DNA of 39,908 nucleotides. Source: a virus. Taxonomy: Duplodnaviria; Heunggongvirae; Uroviricota; Caudoviricetes. Under the pieces are notes generated by a model that saw nothing but the letters and a program-made list of their open reading frames with translations, made no database searches and was not told the DNA's origin. How positions within the stretch are numbered: position 1 is the stretch's first letter; every line of letters begins with the position of its first letter. Made by a program: the position numbers and the translations under genes. The stretch is taken from positions 1 through 39,908 of IMG/VR virus record IMGVR_UViG_2703718871_000021; one strand, given 5' to 3'. Positions 3,523-39,908 of this stretch are shown in pieces.

Positions 3523-4320
3523 ATGCCCCTGGCGAAAATATTTACAAAGCAAGTTTCTTTATTAACTATGTTTTCAGCGTTAGCTTATGCGATGGCATAT
3601 TATTTTCAGAAAGGTGTTGCATCGTATTATGGCTATCCAGACCTTTTTATTAAAATAGACTTAAATACGCTATTGTATTCGGCTGTGTGGCTTTTGTTTT
3701 TTAGTTTTTTATTTCTCGGCGCCTTATATGCGGCGTTGATGTTTGATTTGAAAGGAAAATATTATGTTCCATTTATTGTATTTATAGTTGTTATGCTAAT
3801 GGCTAATATTTGTATAATAGGATTTCATTGGCCTTTTGGTTATTTCTCCGAAACTTCTGTGATGAGTGTTCAGGATATTTTATTATTTGCTATGCTTTTG
3901 TTGAATTATCACAATGTGGTGTCCATGCCAATCCATAGTAAGAGACACGAACATCATATGGAGAGCATTAGAAAATTTGGGAGGCTTGCAGAGTATAAGA
4001 ACGTATTTTATTATATCGATTTAAAAATCCTAAAGTCAGCTTTTCCTTTAGGGGTGATAACGTTGTTGATATTGAGCTATACATTCGGGAAGGTTACTGC
4101 ATTTAAAAATAACGAATATTATATGGTAGATGGTAGTAATACTAAAGTGTTGCTCAATTCATTTGGTAGTGGTTTTGTTGTTGGTGATTGTGAGTCAAAT
4201 AGCGCAAAATTTGAATTTGTTAATGATTTAAAAGGGATGAGATTCACAATCATGTCCTCTAAAAAGGAAATAGCTAAATTAAAAGAGTGTTTCGAAATAC
4301 GTGTTAAAAATACGGATTAA
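3523..4320 (+). CDS. hypothetical multi-pass membrane protein (AT-rich cargo gene)
   Basis: 265-aa ORF on the strand opposite to the surrounding early operon; visibly AT-rich; several long hydrophobic segments (LLYSAVWLLFFSFLFLGALYAAL, FIVFIVVMLMANICIIGF); GAGG-type RBS before ATG. Confidence 0.55.
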   Translation: MPLAKIFTKQVSLLTMFSALAYAMAYYFQKGVASYYGYPDLFIKIDLNTLLYSAVWLLFFSFLFLGALYAALMFDLKGKYYVPFIVFIVVMLMANICIIGFHWPFGYFSETSVMSVQDILLFAMLLLNYHNVVSMPIHSKRHEHHMESIRKFGRLAEYKNVFYYIDLKILKSAFPLGVITLLILSYTFGKVTAFKNNEYYMVDGSNTKVLLNSFGSGFVVGDCESNSAKFEFVNDLKGMRFTIMSSKKEIAKLKECFEIRVKNTD

Positions 4321-10534: not shown

Positions 10535-11437
10535 TTAACCCTCCAGTGCTTTTTCAGCCAGGGTGATTACTTCAGCGAGATTTTCATCCGTTACTTCACC
10601 AAGTTTCCTGGCTCCCTGTTTTTCCAGAATTGCAATAGCTTCTGCCCGGTAACCCCCTTTTGCTAACTGGAGGATCAACCCTTCAGCTTGTTTGCGTAGT
10701 GCCGCGAAATCAATTGTATGGTCATCTTTGGCGTCATTATTCTGGCTGGAATTTGCTGCGTCTCTGCGTGCAAATTCTTCCTGCAGCTGAAGGTACTCAA
10801 CACGATTGATCTCGATATGGCCTTTTTTCAGCATCTCGTTCAACTTGCGTAAGGTGTGGAGTTCACTGGCTGCTGTGCCGGATACATTTTTGACGTAAAA
10901 CGGCCCCGTGCGTTCTCCATCTTTGTTACTGGCCTTTTTCGGCTTAACTTCATCACGCCCATCCGCAGGTGCATCAAGTAGCTGCTCGGCAAAAGCACGT
11001 CGCTCGCCGATGGTTGGCAGGTCGTCCCAGAACTTAAGGATGTTACGGGACAGGTCCAGGAGAGCAGGTTTAAGCAGCGCCCTGGTTCGTTTGACGCCCT
11101 GCAATGCGCTGTCGAGAGCATCAATCTGAACAACTCGTTTATCGCCTTCAGCATCACGGTAGGCAACAGCACGTTGCAGCATGTCTTCTGTGATAGGGGT
11201 GGCTACCGGGTAGAAACCAGCCAGTGCGATAACGTCGCTGAACTCCAGATCATCCAGTGTCATTGCCGCTGACATATTTTCAGTTTCAGTTGCTGTATCC
11301 CGACATTCCTGCACTCGTGAAATCGTGTCAGGATGCATAACAATGCCTGATGCCATTGTGCGGATAAGACGTTCAAGCAGCGCATTATGTTGTGCCAGAA
11401 GTTGATTATTAAGTTCGAGACTGGTTTCTAAACTCAT
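10535..11437 (-). CDS. hypothetical phage early protein
   Basis: 300-aa ORF, stop adjacent to next gene start; acidic, helical-looking; no recognisable motif. Confidence 0.65.
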
Positions 11438-11583
11438 ACTGTGGTCCTCGCTACAAGGAGAATGAAAGTGATGATCAGACCGAGCGCAGTGGCAACGGCC
11501 AGACCGGTCATCAAATCAAAGTTTTTACGGCGATAACGGAGAACATCGCGCCCCGTCAGTCGATAGAGGTGTTCAGGTTTCAT
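11434..11583 (-). CDS. hypothetical small membrane protein (49 aa)
   Basis: Hand-found [52 protein letters not shown] with AGGA RBS; stop TGA overlaps the ATG of the 300-aa gene (ATGA); one predicted TM helix. Confidence 0.4.
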   Translation of the reverse strand: MKPEHLYRLTGRDVLRYRRKNFDLMTGLAVATALGLIITFILLVARTTV

Positions 11584-11641
11584 CGGTTGTATTCCTTTTT
11601 TCATATCGGGGAGCGCGCTGTTGCGAGTGCGCTTTCAGACA

Positions 11642-11668
11642 TAAAAAAGCCCGTCACTTGCGGCGGGC
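11642..11668 (-). terminator. putative rho-independent terminator in the early-left leader
   Basis: Minus strand reads GCCCGCC-gcaagt-GACGGGC followed by TTTTTTAT. Confidence 0.5.
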
Positions 11669-12059
11669 AAAGACTACACACAGCAATTACATGGATGATT
11701 CAGTTGGTATTGTGCGTACGTGGTACCACGAGGTTGAAGCGGACACGCCAGTGCGTTGCAATGGTATGCAGGAAAGCACCACATCCAGGGCAGTGCTCAT
11801 AACATTCGTTGATTTGGTATCGTTTTGGCTTTGGTGTCTGAAGCTGTGTTTGGCAAGCAGGGCATTCACCTTTTGAGCGGTTTATACGTTTTCACGCCGT
11901 TTCCTCATTCAGTTCACTTTGGTGGTTCGGCGGCTTCGACTTGTATCAGTAGACAGTGCTTCGCCGCACCCCAAAGGGAACTTACTGACCCGTATTGCCG
12001 ACATCCTGTCCCGCCACGGTCCCGACGCATGGTTTAGAGTCGCGCCGTTCGACTTGTGG

Positions 12060-12180
12060 CTAAGGATACAATTTAGGTTGTATTGTGTAAACCACAAATG
12101 TGGTATTTTGTGGGGTGTGAATACTACTTTATTGATATTCAAGTGAATTTAATTTGTAAGACTTTACAAATGGGGTAAGG
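12060..12180 (-). promoter_or_regulatory. putative leftward early promoter/operator region (PL/OL-like)
   Basis: Non-coding stretch directly below the repressor gene; contains GGTTGTATT also present in the cI-cro intergenic region, TTGTAT half-sites and inverted repeat ACCACAaaTGTGGT. Confidence 0.35.
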
Positions 12181-12217
12181 GAGACTGTTACGCCTCCCGA
12201 TATTTACGGTGGGAATA

Positions 12218-12841
12218 CTAACGTTTACGGCGGTAAATACGGTGTTCGATCATTACACCTATGATCTGTAAGTTCATATCTGCACTACGAAAAATAGGGT
12301 AATCAGGATTTAGGGGGATTAATTCAAAGTCGTCGATGCCGATTCCTAATGGACGGTATTTTTTAAATGTAGCTTCGTGACCGTCGTTTTTGGCGACAAC
12401 AAACTCCCCTGGTGCAGGACATAGCTCAGGATCGATGATAACAATGTCTCCTTCTTTAAACTCTGGTTGCATGCTGTCGCCATCAATACGTAATGCGAAG
12501 CATGTTTCTGGAATGTCAGAGTCTGCCAAAATATATTCAAATTCCCCTGTCAGATCTGTTATGTCTCTTGCTTCTGTAAGCTCTCCTGCCTGAACGTAAC
12601 TTAATATAGGTATGCGTCTGGTACTTATCTCCGCGAGAGGCATAATATTTTTACCGTTCAGTAGCCAGTCTGGGCTACATTTCAAGGCCTTAGCCAGATC
12701 CAGAAGATTGCGTGGCTTTCTAGTTCGTCCACTTTCGATGGATTCTATGGATTGTTGGCTAACCCCTGCAGAATTCGCTACTTCCACTTGAGTCATTCCT
12801 AATTCCAAACGACGTGCTTTAAAACGGGCTGCGAGAGACAT
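12218..12841 (-). CDS. cI-like repressor (XRE-type HTH plus S24 LexA-like peptidase domain)
   Basis: 207 aa from ATG 12841 (RBS AGAAGGA); N-terminal HTH (LGMTQVEVANSAGVSQQSIESIESG); C-terminal S24 signature with Ser in GDSMQPEF and downstream Lys (FKKY); ORF-track start 12892 is probably an upstream non-ATG artefact. Confidence 0.85.
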   Translation of the reverse strand: MSLAARFKARRLELGMTQVEVANSAGVSQQSIESIESGRTRKPRNLLDLAKALKCSPDWLLNGKNIMPLAEISTRRIPILSYVQAGELTEARDITDLTGEFEYILADSDIPETCFALRIDGDSMQPEFKEGDIVIIDPELCPAPGEFVVAKNDGHEATFKKYRPLGIGIDDFELIPLNPDYPIFRSADMNLQIIGVMIEHRIYRRKR

Positions 12842-12961
12842 GGGATTAGTCCTTCTGGGTTGTATTAATGTGTATACCCACATTAAAAACAATTTTTGTT
12901 GTATTTGACAAACCTTGTTTGTTGTTGCTAAATACCACTAAAATTGTATGAGGTGAAAGCA
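12842..12961. promoter_or_regulatory. divergent promoter/operator region between repressor and cro-like gene
   Basis: 120-bp intergenic; rightward promoter candidate TTGACA (12905-12910) with TG-n-TAAATA extended -10 (~12926-12934); repeated TTGTAT-containing motifs and inverted repeat ATGTG...CACAT. Confidence 0.45.
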
Positions 12962-13174
12962 ATGACCTTAGCGACCCGAGTAAAAGAACGACGTAAAGAA
13001 CTCAAAATGACGCAAGTTACGTTGGCTGAGCTCACAGGAGTGAGCCAGCAGGCAATAAACAGAATTGAAAGTGGTGTTATTGCTCGGCCACGTTATCTTC
13101 TTGAAATGTCTATAGCATTGGATTGCGACCCTAATTGGCTGTTGTATGGCTCACAAAACGATAAAAAGGCTTAA
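12962..13174 (+). CDS. Cro-like HTH regulator
   Basis: 70 aa from ATG 12962 (RBS GAGGTG); XRE-type HTH (VTLAELTGVSQQAINRIESG); divergent from repressor. Confidence 0.8.
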   Translation: MTLATRVKERRKELKMTQVTLAELTGVSQQAINRIESGVIARPRYLLEMSIALDCDPNWLLYGSQNDKKA

Positions 13175-38233: not shown

Positions 38234-39309
38234 TGGCAAAAAATGACTTTAAAGCATTCGCAACGGGTAAAAATGCCAATGTTATGTCGCAGGAGGAATG
38301 GGAAGCGTTGCCTGCGCTTTTATCCGGATTTACAGCAGGGAAAGCATCCAGTGCGCAAGTCAACAAGGCTATTCGGCAGGCCAGCTTTATTGCATCTGCA
38401 ATAGCACAATATACAGCAAATGAAAGTGGACTGGATGTACAGGATGATGGCGAGCAGGCCGGCTTTATCGCAAAAATGTCGTCTGCATTAGATAAGAACT
38501 ACCAGAGAATTAATGCCATACTTACCGCACTTGCTAATCTTTCAGCATCCGAAAACAAATTACCGTATTTTACCAATCAAGATACCGCTAATTTGGCTGA
38601 CCTGACACAGGTTGGGCGAGATATTTTGGCAAAAAGCTCTGTTGCTGATGTCCTTAAATATCTTGGTCTGGAAGATAATTCGACTTTTCCTGTAGGTGCC
38701 CCGATCCCGTGGCCATCAGATACAGTTCCATCTGGTTATGCTCTGATGCAGGGACAGACTTTTGACAAGTCTGCATACCCGAAACTTGCAGCCGCTTATC
38801 CGTCAGGCGTGATCCCTGATATGCGTGGCTGGACGATTAAGGGCAAGCCCGCCAGTGGTCGTGCCGTATTGTCTCAGGAACAGGACGGCATTAAATCGCA
38901 CACCCACAGCGCCAGCGTATCCAGTACGGATTTGGGTACGAAAACCACATCGTCGTTTGATTACGGGACGAAAACAACCTCACTATTTGACTATGGGACC
39001 AAAACTACCAGTAACGCCGGGAGTCACACGCATTCAATACCAACATCAGATGGTGCAAACCAGGGGGGGAAAATTCCACTGACATCTGGGCGTCTGGCAA
39101 CTCAATATACATCAGCAACAACAGGTTCCTCTGGCTCACATTCTCATACTGTAGGTATTGGTTCTCATCAGCACACTGTCGGTATTGGTGCACACACGCA
39201 CTCCGTTGCGATTGGCTCACATGGACACACCATCACCGTTAACGCTGCTGGTAACGCGGAAAACACCGTTAAAAACATTGCATTTAACTATATTGTGAGG
39301 CTTGCATAA
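38233..39309 (+). CDS. tail fiber protein with internal tandem repeats
   Basis: ~358 aa from ATG 38233; three GTKTTSxFDY repeats and three SH-x-HTVGIG/H-x-H repeats near the C-terminus; followed by tail fiber assembly gene. Confidence 0.7.
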
Positions 39310-39908
39310 TGGCATTCAGAATGAGTGAACAATCACGAACCATCAAAATTTATAATCTGCTGGCCGGAACTAATGAATTTATTGGTGAAGGTGACGCATA
39401 TATTCCACCTCATACAGGTCTACCTGCAAACAGTACCGATATTGTACCGCCAGATATTCCGGCTGGCTTCGTGGCTATTTTCAACAGTGATGAGGCGTCC
39501 TGGCATCTCGTTGAAGATCATCGTGGTAAAACGGTTTATGACGTGGCTTCCGGCGACGCGTTATTTATTTCTGAACTCGGTCCGTTACCGGAAAATGTTA
39601 CCTGGTTGTCGCCGGAAGGGGAATATCAGAAGTGGAACGGCATAGCCTGGGTGAAGGATACGGAAGCAGAAAAACTGTTCCGGATACGGGAGGCGGAAGA
39701 AACAAAAAACAACCTGATGCAGGTAGCCAGTGAGCATATTGCGCCGCTTCAGGATGCTGCAGATCTGGAAATTGCAACGGAGGAAGAAATCTCGTTGCTG
39801 GAAGCATGGAAAAAGTATCGGGTATTGCTGAACCGTGTTGATACATCAAGTGCACCGGATATTGAGTGGCCTGCTTCCCCAGTGGAATCAAGGAGTAAAC
39901 AAGCATAA
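39309..39908 (+). CDS. tail fiber assembly protein (Tfa/gpU-like)
   Basis: 199-aa ORF starting [58 protein letters not shown], typical Tfa N-terminus; stop is the last triplet of the window. Confidence 0.7.

Follow-up and report, generated by a model that had tools for sequence, protein, structure and literature searches.

A predicted phage 434-type immunity switch with a putL-type leader RNA in an Escherichia coli prophage

Genes at the locus

The window (the whole 39,908-nucleotide stretch of prophage DNA that was analysed) carries a repressor gene and a cro-like gene, which lie divergently on opposite strands, 120 bp apart.

12218-12841, minus strand: CI-type repressor, 207 aa, whose N-terminal helix-turn-helix resembles the one in 434 cI and whose C-terminal domain is S24 (LexA-like), of the self-cleaving type
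12962-13174, plus strand: Cro-like lytic repressor, 70 aa, with the Pfam domain HTH_3 (1.7e-14)
12179-12198, minus strand: hairpin GGGAG-N10-CTCCC directly behind the stop codon of cI, resembling a weak terminator

The repressor contains the Pfam domains HTH_3 (1.1e-12) and Peptidase_S24 (9e-22), and its best match in a phmmer search of solved structures was the 434 repressor (1per; E 5.9e-16, residues 2-65). The Cro-like protein likewise matched 434 Cro best (1zug; E 1.9e-19, residues 2-69). Gln29-Gln30, Ala85-Gly86, Ser123 and Lys160 of the repressor were invariant in the alignment with 434 cI. Q29 and Q30 form the Gln-Gln start of the recognition helix, and A85-G86, S123 and K160 were invariant throughout the family, 434 included. 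The C-terminal domain thus has both the Ala-Gly site and the Ser/Lys dyad of LexA/S24 proteins, and self-cleavage is predicted. A Shine-Dalgarno sequence precedes cI, as is also the case on the 434 cI mRNA (PMC5977221), and a ribosome-binding site (GAGGTG) lies 6 nt upstream of cro. A GC-rich hairpin was present at the same position after cI in relatives; in L037, a heteroimmune prophage of E. coli, this place is taken by a clear intrinsic terminator.

Operators, promoters and leader RNA

Phage 434 has three 14-bp sites in each of OR and OL, with conserved outer 4+4 bases, a central 4 bp without protein contact and the reference operator ACAATNNNNATTGT (PMC1636474). We read the 434 operators from the genome sequence and not from the annotated features of record OL657227.1, whose "OL1-3" protein_bind features lie inside the cI coding sequence and coincide with no ACAA-N6-TTGT. 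A matrix built from the six real 434 operators only was used to score 39891 window positions. Sites of this type were found on both sides of the repressor gene, together with candidate promoters, which bears out the original prediction of one CI-type repressor between an OR-type and an OL-type operator set.

12889-12902: predicted OR3, ACAATTTTTGTTGT, a perfect ACAA-N6-TTGT dyad, separated from the PR -35 by 2 bp
12912-12925: predicted OR2, ACCTTGTTTGTTGT, a weaker dyad in the PR spacer, starting at TTGACA +7 as in 434
12934-12947: predicted OR1, ACCACTAAAATTGT, adjoining the PR -10 and covering the expected PR start
12905-12934, plus strand: predicted PR promoter for cro, -35 TTGACA at 12905-12910, with a presumed start
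12882-12911, minus strand: candidate PRM promoter for cI, 18-bp spacer
12865-12886: perfect inverted repeat TTAATGTG-N6-CACATTAA, over the predicted PRM -10 and start
12068-12081: predicted OL1, ACAATTTAGGTTGT, a perfect dyad in the PL spacer that touches the PL -10 and contains the first GGTTGTATT
12091-12104: predicted OL2, ACCACAAATGTGGT, a variant but symmetric dyad (ACCA/TGGT) at 23 bp from OL1
12123-12136: candidate OL3, ACTACTTTATTGAT, a weak match (matrix rank 302), ACCACGTTATTGAT in most relatives
12063-12091, minus strand: predicted PL promoter, TTTACA-17-TATCCT, found by promoter scan
11979-12059, minus strand: putL-type antiterminator RNA, the predicted leader of the PL transcript, immediately downstream of PL

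OL1, OR3 and OR1 took ranks 1, 2 and 6 of the 39891 positions, with OR2 at rank 31 and OL2 at rank 32. The window as a whole has just two perfect ACAA-N6-TTGT dyads (starting at 12068 and 12889; ~0.95 expected by chance), one in each of the non-coding regions that flank the repressor gene, and this count is a more meaningful statistic than the copy number of GGTTGTATT, the shared 9-mer on which the original prediction was built.

On the right, three 14-bp operators follow the order OR3, PR -35, OR2, OR1, with site starts 23 and 22 bp apart and with 8/8 (OR3), 6/8 (OR2) and 7/8 (OR1) outer bases matching ACAA/TTGT. OR3 has the position relative to TTGACA that it has in 434 and sits in the spacer of the predicted PRM, and OR1 starts at TTGACA +29, again as in 434. 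The proposed rightward TTGACA promoter for the cro-like gene was recovered, with TG-C-TAAATA at 12926-12934. Its -10 may be CTAAAT (12928-12933; 17-bp spacer), in the position equivalent to 434, or TAAATA (12929-12934; 18-bp spacer), with a TG in front. T.GACAAAC was invariant and the -10 position conserved throughout the family including 434, and in the alignment (A1) the invariant columns coincided exactly with the ACA/TGT ends, with GACAAAC and with the -10. The candidate PRM has a -35 TTGTCA (reverse complement of 12906-12911), which shares base pairs with the PR -35, and a -10 TTTAAT (reverse complement of 12882-12887), and its geometry matches that of phage 434. ATTAA(A/T) immediately left of OR3 was the sole conserved element in the otherwise unrelated cI-proximal segments of the relatives. 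The PRM hexamers are weak and were assigned purely by position and conservation. A PRM start near 12875 would place OR3, OR2 and OR1 at about -20, -43 and -65.

On the left, OL1 matches the 434 consensus in 8/8 outer bases and aligns with 434 OL1. The OL3 candidate lies 32 bp from OL2 (31 bp for the 434 equivalent) and was conserved among relatives, in contrast to the 10 variable bp lying between it and OL2. The PL -35 TTTACA is the reverse complement of 12086-12091 and the -10 TATCCT that of 12063-12068, a TTTACA-17 arrangement common to phage 434 and HK022. Inspection by eye of 12100-12170 for alternative leftward promoters revealed only poor hexamers.

The putL-type RNA was recognized by blastn, with 82-84% identity to putL of HK022, HK75 and O276 (annotated as such in the records of the latter two) and to the putL-like element of HK639. 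putL is situated just downstream of PL (PMC9378689), and in the window 9 nt separate the PL -10 from the first put stem, as in HK022. Stem II showed five pairs with compensatory changes, whereas stem I, predicted by RNAalifold, was invariant and is thus uninformative. Our covariance model (R1) scored 106.7 bits at 11979-12059; it also found HK022 putR (18.6 bits), which served as a positive control, and a putR-like element in another sequence (L038), and it detected no second put copy (putR) in the window at E <=1. The PL leader folded alone gave z = -1.42, which is not significant, so the put identity comes from homology and covariation and not from leader folding. With its homology to putL, its place after PL and its two stems, the element is of the HK022 put type and would be expected to act as such.

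A scan of the window at Rfam gathering thresholds returned only IS009 (39652-39850). An E-value scan of 11550-13000 added a sub-threshold RprA match outside the immunity region. Matches to mir-223 (12874-12957; 22.5 bits against a threshold of 57) and, over the RprA-like stretch, to anti-hemB (11641-11733; 20.9 against 49.5) were treated as chance.

Conservation was counted in 43 distinct loci with a recognition helix identical to that of the window. OR3 was kept in all 43, OR1, OR2 and OL1 (as ACAATTT-NNN-TTGT) in 41 each and OL2 in 40; what was kept in OR2 was the pattern of AC.. and TTGT ends around a variable centre. The operators also changed together with the helix. Relatives with a SQQSIES-type helix, and 434, have ACAA...TTGT operators, and those with an xQQSW(A/G)S helix have ACAG...CTGT at all three OR sites, with both halves changed; the operator-helix pairs in the family are ACAA/SQQSIES, ACCA/TQQGIVS and ACAG/xQQSWAS. 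The prophage L037 shares its flanks with the window up to about 12059 and then carries a different cassette, in which its repressor is flanked on either side by a motif unlike that of the window. The originally delimited interval begins on the left at 12060, which by this comparison is the real left boundary of the exchangeable immunity cassette. Of 5426 complete E. coli genomes, at least 65 carried a prophage of this family, with O55:H7 and several backgrounds of Shiga-toxin-producing E. coli (STEC) among them. In a near-identity search of a phage database only 11400-11696 of the window matched, so no sequenced phage in that collection carries the immunity cassette.

The proposed switch and other readings of the repeats

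What is directly established is the homology of the proteins and of the put element, the sequence and register of the operators, their conservation and their co-variation with the helix; together these point to 12060-13174 as an exchangeable immunity cassette homologous to the phage 434 immunity region, a reading to which we give a probability of roughly 0.88. The switch is of the ordinary prophage lysis/lysogeny type, of the well-studied phage 434 kind; it is a further member and nothing new in principle. From sequence, we infer protein binding and transcription starts for the prophage, and likewise affinity order, cooperativity, PRM activation, SOS induction and put activity.

Repressor and Cro are predicted to share six 14-bp ACAA-N6-TTGT operators. 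Repressor dimers would bind these dyads (18 bp with A/T flanks) at OR3, OR2 and OR1 over the divergent PR and PRM and, on the left, at two clear sites and a weaker candidate (OL1, OL2, OL3) over PL. Occupancy of OR1 and OR2 would shut PR, and with it cro followed by the VapE primase and later genes, and occupancy of OL1 and OL2 would shut PL. In lambdoid phages PRM is activated by OR2-bound repressor and repressed via OR3 (PMC5977221); by analogy with 434 and lambda, PRM would here be stimulated by repressor at OR2 and held in check by occupancy of OR3. In lytic growth the repressor's operators would be bound by Cro, whose recognition helix has the same Gln-Gln start. After DNA damage, the repressor would lose its activity through RecA-stimulated self-cleavage at Ala85-Gly86. 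The PL transcript would open with the putL-type RNA, allowing RNA polymerase to read through terminators without an N protein, past the RprA-like terminator at about 11640-11665 and into the replication genes.

The roles of the individual sites might be arranged differently in this branch of the 434 family, which we regard as unlikely. The best consensus sites, and the only perfect dyads, are OR3 and OL1; a second half-site class, ACCA, appears in OR1, OL2 and OL3, and the repressor has Ser in place of 434 Gln33. Were OR3 the strongest CI site, or did CI and Cro prefer opposite half-site classes, the sites would fill in a different order and cI autoregulation would follow a different logic from that of the textbook scheme. 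With rearranged roles, the family would offer a natural series for helix-turn-helix specificity and immunity divergence.

Improbable, too, is that the repeat at 12865-12886 is an extra regulatory site through which another protein (abundant Cro, a factor of the host or a further phage regulator) tunes cI on top of the 434-type switch. The original prediction had noticed its inner part, ATGTG...CACAT, which is indeed present but belongs to a perfect 8-6-8 repeat. Lying on the predicted PRM core, this palindrome with 8-bp arms is unique: we found no further copy of TTAATGTG-N6-CACATTAA in the window with up to three mismatches allowed, although at that tolerance one match arose by chance in 17 of 100 shuffles. 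The repeat, like the second GGTTGTATT (12858), was restricted to the window's own lineage (7 of the 43 relatives). It was retained in all seven distinct sequences with only the loop varying, but these are near-identical overall, so the retention carries little weight. The absence of a second copy in the window speaks against an extra site, as does the lack of a candidate binding protein.

The original prediction went further in taking GGTTGTATT and short inverted repeats (12868-12883 and ACCACAaaTGTGGT) as the operator unit, in which case the repressor would also bind 12858-12886. We consider this very unlikely; the unit is the 14-bp dyad ACAA-N6-TTGT. GGTTGTATT does occur on both sides of cI, at 12076-12084 and 12858-12866, although each position had been given one base off, and a small ORF contains a third copy (11585-11593). 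Three copies in 39.9 kb exceed the 0.38 expected (three were reached in 1 of 100 shuffles), and the two flanking regions have a longer gapped similarity in common (GGTTGTATT..GTGTA.ACC.ACA), to which the perfect and unique 22-bp repeat at 12865-12886 may be added. However, the first copy simply consists of OL1's right half and two bases of its variable spacer. The GG of this copy lies in the middle of OL1, a part that differs between relatives; the central 4 bp of 434 operators are left uncontacted by the protein (PMC1636474). The exact 9-mer was absent from OL1 in all 43 relatives. The second copy and the repeat fall within 12842-12886 beside cI, where most same-helix relatives have unrelated sequence, and neither was conserved with the same repressor. 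A fourth operator at 12848-12865, with the second GGTTGTATT as its right half, was rejected: its left half is AGTCCT, it ranked 868 with the 434 matrix and it was not conserved. Other elements of that prediction fared better, the ACCACAaaTGTGGT palindrome being OL2 itself and the TTGTAT half-sites being conserved among loci with the same repressor. Copies of TTGTAT begin at 12078, 12860, 12899 and 12944.

That the left region (12060-12217) holds just the cI 3' end and a terminator, with chance palindromes and neither OL nor PL, is scarcely credible: the leftward promoter is a 9/12 consensus match of a kind not enriched over shuffles and OL3 is weak, but no 434-type site in 39.9 kb scores higher than OL1, OL1-TGTAAA-OL2 aligns with 434 OL and was conserved in 40-41 of the 43 relatives while neighbouring bases vary, a putL homologue beginning 9 nt after the PL -10, exactly as in HK022, needs a promoter there, and the boundary of the heteroimmune cassette (about 12059) falls at the edge of the region.

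The main value of the 434-type assignment lies in annotation, as it provides base-level operators, promoters and an antiterminator for an E. coli prophage family whose switch genes RefSeq names just "LexA family protein" and "helix-turn-helix domain-containing protein", with 630 bp lacking any annotation. The 434-type switch and the HK022-type put RNA appear as portable modules, of predicted function, in a prophage of the PolA/VapE-replication type, and the relatives are a clean natural example of operator half-sites changing along with the recognition helix. Current understanding of such switches is unchanged by these findings.

Comparison with phages 434, lambda and HK022

The closest known system is phage 434, with which the window shares a homologous repressor DNA-binding domain and Cro, the S24 self-cleavage domain and the 14-bp ACAA-N6-TTGT form of the operators. 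The 434 genome reads TC[ACAAGAAAAACTGT]ATTTGACAA[ACAAGATACATTGT]ATGAAAAT[ACAAGAAAGTTTGT] across OR3, the -35, OR2 and OR1; the offsets of OR3, OR2 and OR1 from TTGACA (-16, +7 and +29) are identical in the window and the block TTGACAAAC is common to both. The three OL sites of 434 are spaced by 23 and 31 bp; in the window OL1 and OL2 lie 23 bp apart and the OL3 candidate a further 32 bp on, with the same TGTAAA between OL1 and OL2 and, in both, a TTTACA PL -35 between these sites. The repressor, however, has just ~38-40% overall identity to 434 cI, and its recognition helix reads SQQSIESIESG against TQQSIEQLENG in 434. ACAA is replaced in the left halves of three sites (ACCT in OR2; ACCA in OR1 and OL2), and OR3 is a perfect dyad whereas that of 434 is deviant and weak, so the sites may rank differently in affinity and PRM may be controlled by another logic than in 434. 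The base-contacting residues and half-sites are not identical with those of 434, whereas homoimmunity would demand that they be. In place of 434 Gln33, a base-contacting residue in the 434 complexes, the window repressor has Ser, so the two proteins may differ in specificity. The window also differs in having no rex-like gene after cI, no N gene but a put RNA after PL, and no cII, cro being followed directly by the VapE primase.

Lambda has the same divergent PRM/PR, three operators, second set at PL and LexA-like repressor, and the positions of its OR3, OR2 and OR1 relative to PRM resemble those predicted here (about -20, -43 and -65). In contrast, the window operators are 14-bp 434-type dyads and not 17-bp lambda sites, and the PR and PRM -35 hexamers share base pairs. 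The genes of a classical lambdoid early region (N with nutL/nutR, cII/cIII and O/P) are absent from the window, which has no N or cII ORF; the leftward genes encode DUF2800, an Enc34-type single-strand-binding protein and PolA. The window encodes a Q antiterminator, and a lambda-family holin is annotated at the corresponding place in the near-identical CB9615 prophage.

The genomic setting differs from that of HK022, the window representing a PolA/DUF2800/VapE-type prophage and not a classical lambdoid one, and a putR-like copy was detected by our model in HK022 but not in the window. The putL elements are nevertheless alike, with 82% identity over 72 nt, the same 9-nt distance from the PL -10 and a conserved single-stranded UAAACCAUGCGUCGG that includes the -10-like AACCAT (alignment A4). 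Compared with lambda, it is this put RNA that takes the place of nutL in the window.

Repressor and Cro of the immunity region

The window comes from an E. coli prophage. Its 1.35-kb immunity region was found again, 99% identical, in genomes including O55:H7 CB9615, with at least 65 of 5426 E. coli complete genomes giving a match, 44 of them full-length. RefSeq labels in the region are only "LexA family protein", "helix-turn-helix domain-containing protein" and "VapE domain-containing protein". Two divergent genes 120 bp apart make up the switch, with ~160 bp of non-coding DNA downstream of the repressor gene.

Genes of the switch
12218-12841, leftward: repressor gene (cI-type), 207 aa
12962-13174, rightward: cro-like gene, 70 aa

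The 207-aa protein contains HTH_3 and Peptidase_S24 domains and the 70-aa protein HTH_3 alone. Among all solved structures, the top matches were the DNA-binding domain of the phage 434 repressor (E 5.9e-16) and 434 Cro (E 1.9e-19), respectively. Overall the repressor has ~38-40% identity to 434 cI. Related loci were drawn from one-genome-per-species contigs, IMG/VR and E. coli, resulting in 43 distinct loci with an identical recognition helix (SQQSIESIESG) and an overall repressor identity of 66-100%, mostly 84-100%. An alignment of the repressor with relatives and 434 cI showed no variation in the Gln-Gln that opens the recognition helix, at the Ala-Gly cleavage site or in the S24 active-site Ser and Lys.

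Predicted operators on both sides of the repressor gene

The original prediction was of a lambdoid switch with GGTTGTATT as an operator-like motif on both sides of cI. Its architecture, one repressor with an operator set on each side, was right, with 434-type sites in both flanks of cI, but its motif assignment was partly wrong. The TTGTAT strings it named (starting at 12078, 12860, 12899 and 12944) include the right halves of real dyads; the unit is ACAA-N6-TTGT, not GGTTGTATT. Repeat finding placed these right halves in 18-bp dyads, the 14-bp cores of which are of the form ACAA-N6-TTGT.

18-bp dyads, by start
12066: ATACAA-TTTAGG-TTGTAT
12887: AAACAA-TTTTTG-TTGTAT
12932: ATACCA-CTAAAA-TTGTAT

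Phage 434 OR and OL each have three 14-bp sites in which the outer 4+4 bases are conserved, with ACAATNNNNATTGT as the reference operator (PMC1636474). Judged by sequence, ACAA-N6-TTGT is the 434 operator form. We took the 434 operators directly from the genome sequence (OL657227.1). The OL1-3 features annotated in this record, at locus positions 1641-1722 inside the cI coding sequence, match no ACAA-N6-TTGT and appear misplaced; the real OL dyads of the 434 locus start at 2652, 2629 and 2598 on its minus strand.

Read with cI to the left and cro to the right, 434 OR is TC, ACAAGAAAAACTGT (site), ATTTGACAA, ACAAGATACATTGT (site), ATGAAAAT, ACAAGAAAGTTTGT (site), and the window OR is AA, ACAATTTTTGTTGT (site), ATTTGACAA, ACCTTGTTTGTTGT (site), TGCTAAAT, ACCACTAAAATTGT (site). 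In both, the site starts are spaced by 23 and 22 bp, the TGTATTTGACAAAC block is identical and the -10 lies at the same place; the three window sites are therefore OR3, OR2 and OR1. On the other side, 434 OL is ACAAGGAAGATTGT (site), ATGTTGTAA, ACAATAAATATTGT (site), ..., ACAAACTCCATTGT (site), with spacings of 23 and 31 bp, compared to ACAATTTAGGTTGT (site), ATTGTGTAA, ACCACAAATGTGGT (site), ..., ACTACTTTATTGAT (site) in the window, with spacings of 23 and 32 bp. Both have TGTAAA between OL1 and OL2, which on the opposite strand reads as a TTTACA -35 hexamer.

ACAA-N6-TTGT occurs twice in the 39.9 kb (12068 and 12889), with about one copy expected anywhere in the window, and both copies sit in the short non-coding stretches flanking cI. 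To rank 39891 positions, we used a weight matrix derived solely from the six 434 operators and hence independent of the window.

Predicted operator sites, with matrix rank and retention in the 43 relatives
OL1, 12068-12081: rank 1/39891, kept 41/43
OL2, 12091-12104: rank 32/39891, kept 40/43
OL3 candidate, 12123-12136: rank 302/39891
OR3, 12889-12902: rank 2/39891, core kept 43/43
OR2, 12912-12925: rank 31/39891, pattern kept 41/43
OR1, 12934-12947: rank 6/39891, core kept 41/43

Per-position conservation showed 12882-12949 to be nearly invariant save for the OR2 centre and OL1-TGTAAA-OL2 to be invariant, while the 10 bp separating OL2 from OL3 vary. In an alignment that spans genera and includes 434, precisely these columns do not vary: the ACA and TGT ends, GACAAAC and the -10. 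The three sites are in register, at fixed offsets from TTGACA, in every family member. ACAA...TTGT pairs with the helices SQQSIES, SQQSIET, SQQAIES, TQQGIVS and 434 TQQSIEQ, and ACAG...CTGT with K/RQQSW(A/G)S helices, all three sites and both halves being changed symmetrically. Genuine dyad operators, bound by a dimer, would be expected to change symmetrically with the helix in this way.

Both flanks contain GGTTGTATT itself, at 12076-12084 and at 12858-12866, positions that differ by one base from those predicted, and the string is over-represented in the window (3 copies against 0.38 expected). Its conservation, which the original prediction set as a test, did not hold. The second copy and the perfect inverted repeat beside cI (TTAATGTG-N6-CACATTAA, 12865-12886, 22 bp) are kept in 7 of the 43 relatives, the window's own lineage only, and in the other 36 the cI-proximal segment 12842-12881 is replaced by sequence of little or no resemblance. 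No relative (0/43) has the exact string at OL; its GG falls in the variable OL1 centre (AGG, GAG, GAA or AAA). A third exact copy (11585-11593), inside a 56-aa ORF (11434-11604, minus strand), lacks a dyad partner and probably arose by chance. The other predicted strings were found, ACCACAAATGTGGT at 12091-12104, TTGACA at 12905 and TG-C-TAAATA at 12926-12934.

A further non-coding block (12139-12172), between the OL3 candidate and the post-cI hairpin, is conserved in ~40 relatives and contains an inverted repeat, TTTGTAA-N4-TTACAAA, of polarity opposite to the operators.

Other E. coli prophages have flanks in common with the window and a different repressor and Cro pair, with homology that breaks off at ~12059 to the left and, to the right, where cro ends (~13174). 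In E. coli 2014C-3061 (locus L037, 1650-2673) an XRE repressor and a Cro/CI protein occupy the same locus between identical flanks. The cassette carries a motif of its own, GTTTAG-N4-CTTAAC, with two copies in the repressor-cro interval and a third downstream of the repressor; two-sided operators are therefore a property of the module and not of one sequence.

Promoters and the leftward leader RNA

Predicted leftward elements
12091 to 12063, minus: PL, TTTACA-17-TATCCT (independent promoter scan)
12911 to 12882, minus: PRM candidate, TTGTCA-18-TTTAAT
11979-12059, minus: putL-type antiterminator RNA, leader of the leftward early transcript (covariance model, 106.7 bits)

The -35 of the PRM candidate overlaps the PR -35 base pairs, and its -10 corresponds to the only conserved element (ATTAA) within the otherwise unrelated cI-proximal segments. 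Beyond the observed homology, register, conservation and co-variation, we infer the regulatory steps by analogy with 434 and lambda (PMC5977221). Repressor on OR1 and OR2 would block PR and on OL1 and OL2 would block PL, OR2-bound repressor would help PRM and OR3 would limit it, Cro would act through the same sites, and RecA-stimulated repressor cleavage would lead to prophage induction.

Conservation of the 80 nt just beyond the left cassette boundary extends across heteroimmune prophages and even to a different prophage type (E. coli LWY24, L038). This stretch is a homologue of HK022 putL and matches the annotated putL of HK75 and O276 as well as the HK639 putL-like element; UAAACCAUGCGUCGG is retained in the alignment with HK022, and stem II has compensatory changes at 5 pairs. 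The PL -10 is 9 nt from the first put stem in both HK022 and the window. putL lies just downstream of PL and acts without a protein factor, via the RNA polymerase beta-prime zinc-binding domain (PMC9378689). This known position supports the PL assignment, and such factor-independent action would explain why the window has no N gene. The covariance model recovered HK022 putR as a control and found no second (putR-like) copy in the window. The LWY24 prophage (HNH endonuclease, XRE repressor, CII) has putL-like (2497-2579, minus) and putR-like (3831-3907, plus) elements that flank its immunity region, as in HK022.

The first gene after putL, unannotated, encodes a 58-aa zinc-ribbon protein (CPAC...CP(G/R)C; GTG start; ~11700-11894, minus). 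It is intact in 12 of 12 relatives checked, CB9615 included, and frameshifted in the window at 11869-11877 by an extra A (CTCAAAAGG in place of CTCAAAGG), either a mutation or a sequencing error. Directly after it, 11639-11748 (minus) gave a sub-threshold Rfam match to the core small RNA RprA (48.9 bits, threshold 70; E 2.6e-5). Its 3' part, AAUUGCUGUGUGUAGUCUUUGCCCG, differs very little from the RprA consensus, and a terminator stem and U-run of its own come after it. This stretch may be a prophage 3'-UTR element mimicking the RprA 3' region; among the matches listed, titles and abstracts of the RprA and prophage literature held no obvious description of one. At the far window end, a full-length Rfam IS009 match (39652-39850, plus; 219 bits, threshold 117) lies inside an ORF (39309-39908) that runs off the end.

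Comparison with phage 434

On its sequence, the switch belongs to the 434-type immunity family, as an ordinary member that had not been characterised before. In three window sites ACCA or ACCT replaces the ACAA of 434. The perfect dyads of the window are OR3 and OL1, whereas 434 OR3 departs from ACAA, and repressor binding to it is ~12-fold weaker in the intact OR (PMC5977221). The window repressor has Ser in place of 434 Gln33. Given these differences, immunity specificity and the order of site filling may not be those of 434. Compared to 434, the window also lacks a rex-like gene, N and cII, and has a VapE/PolA module for replication.
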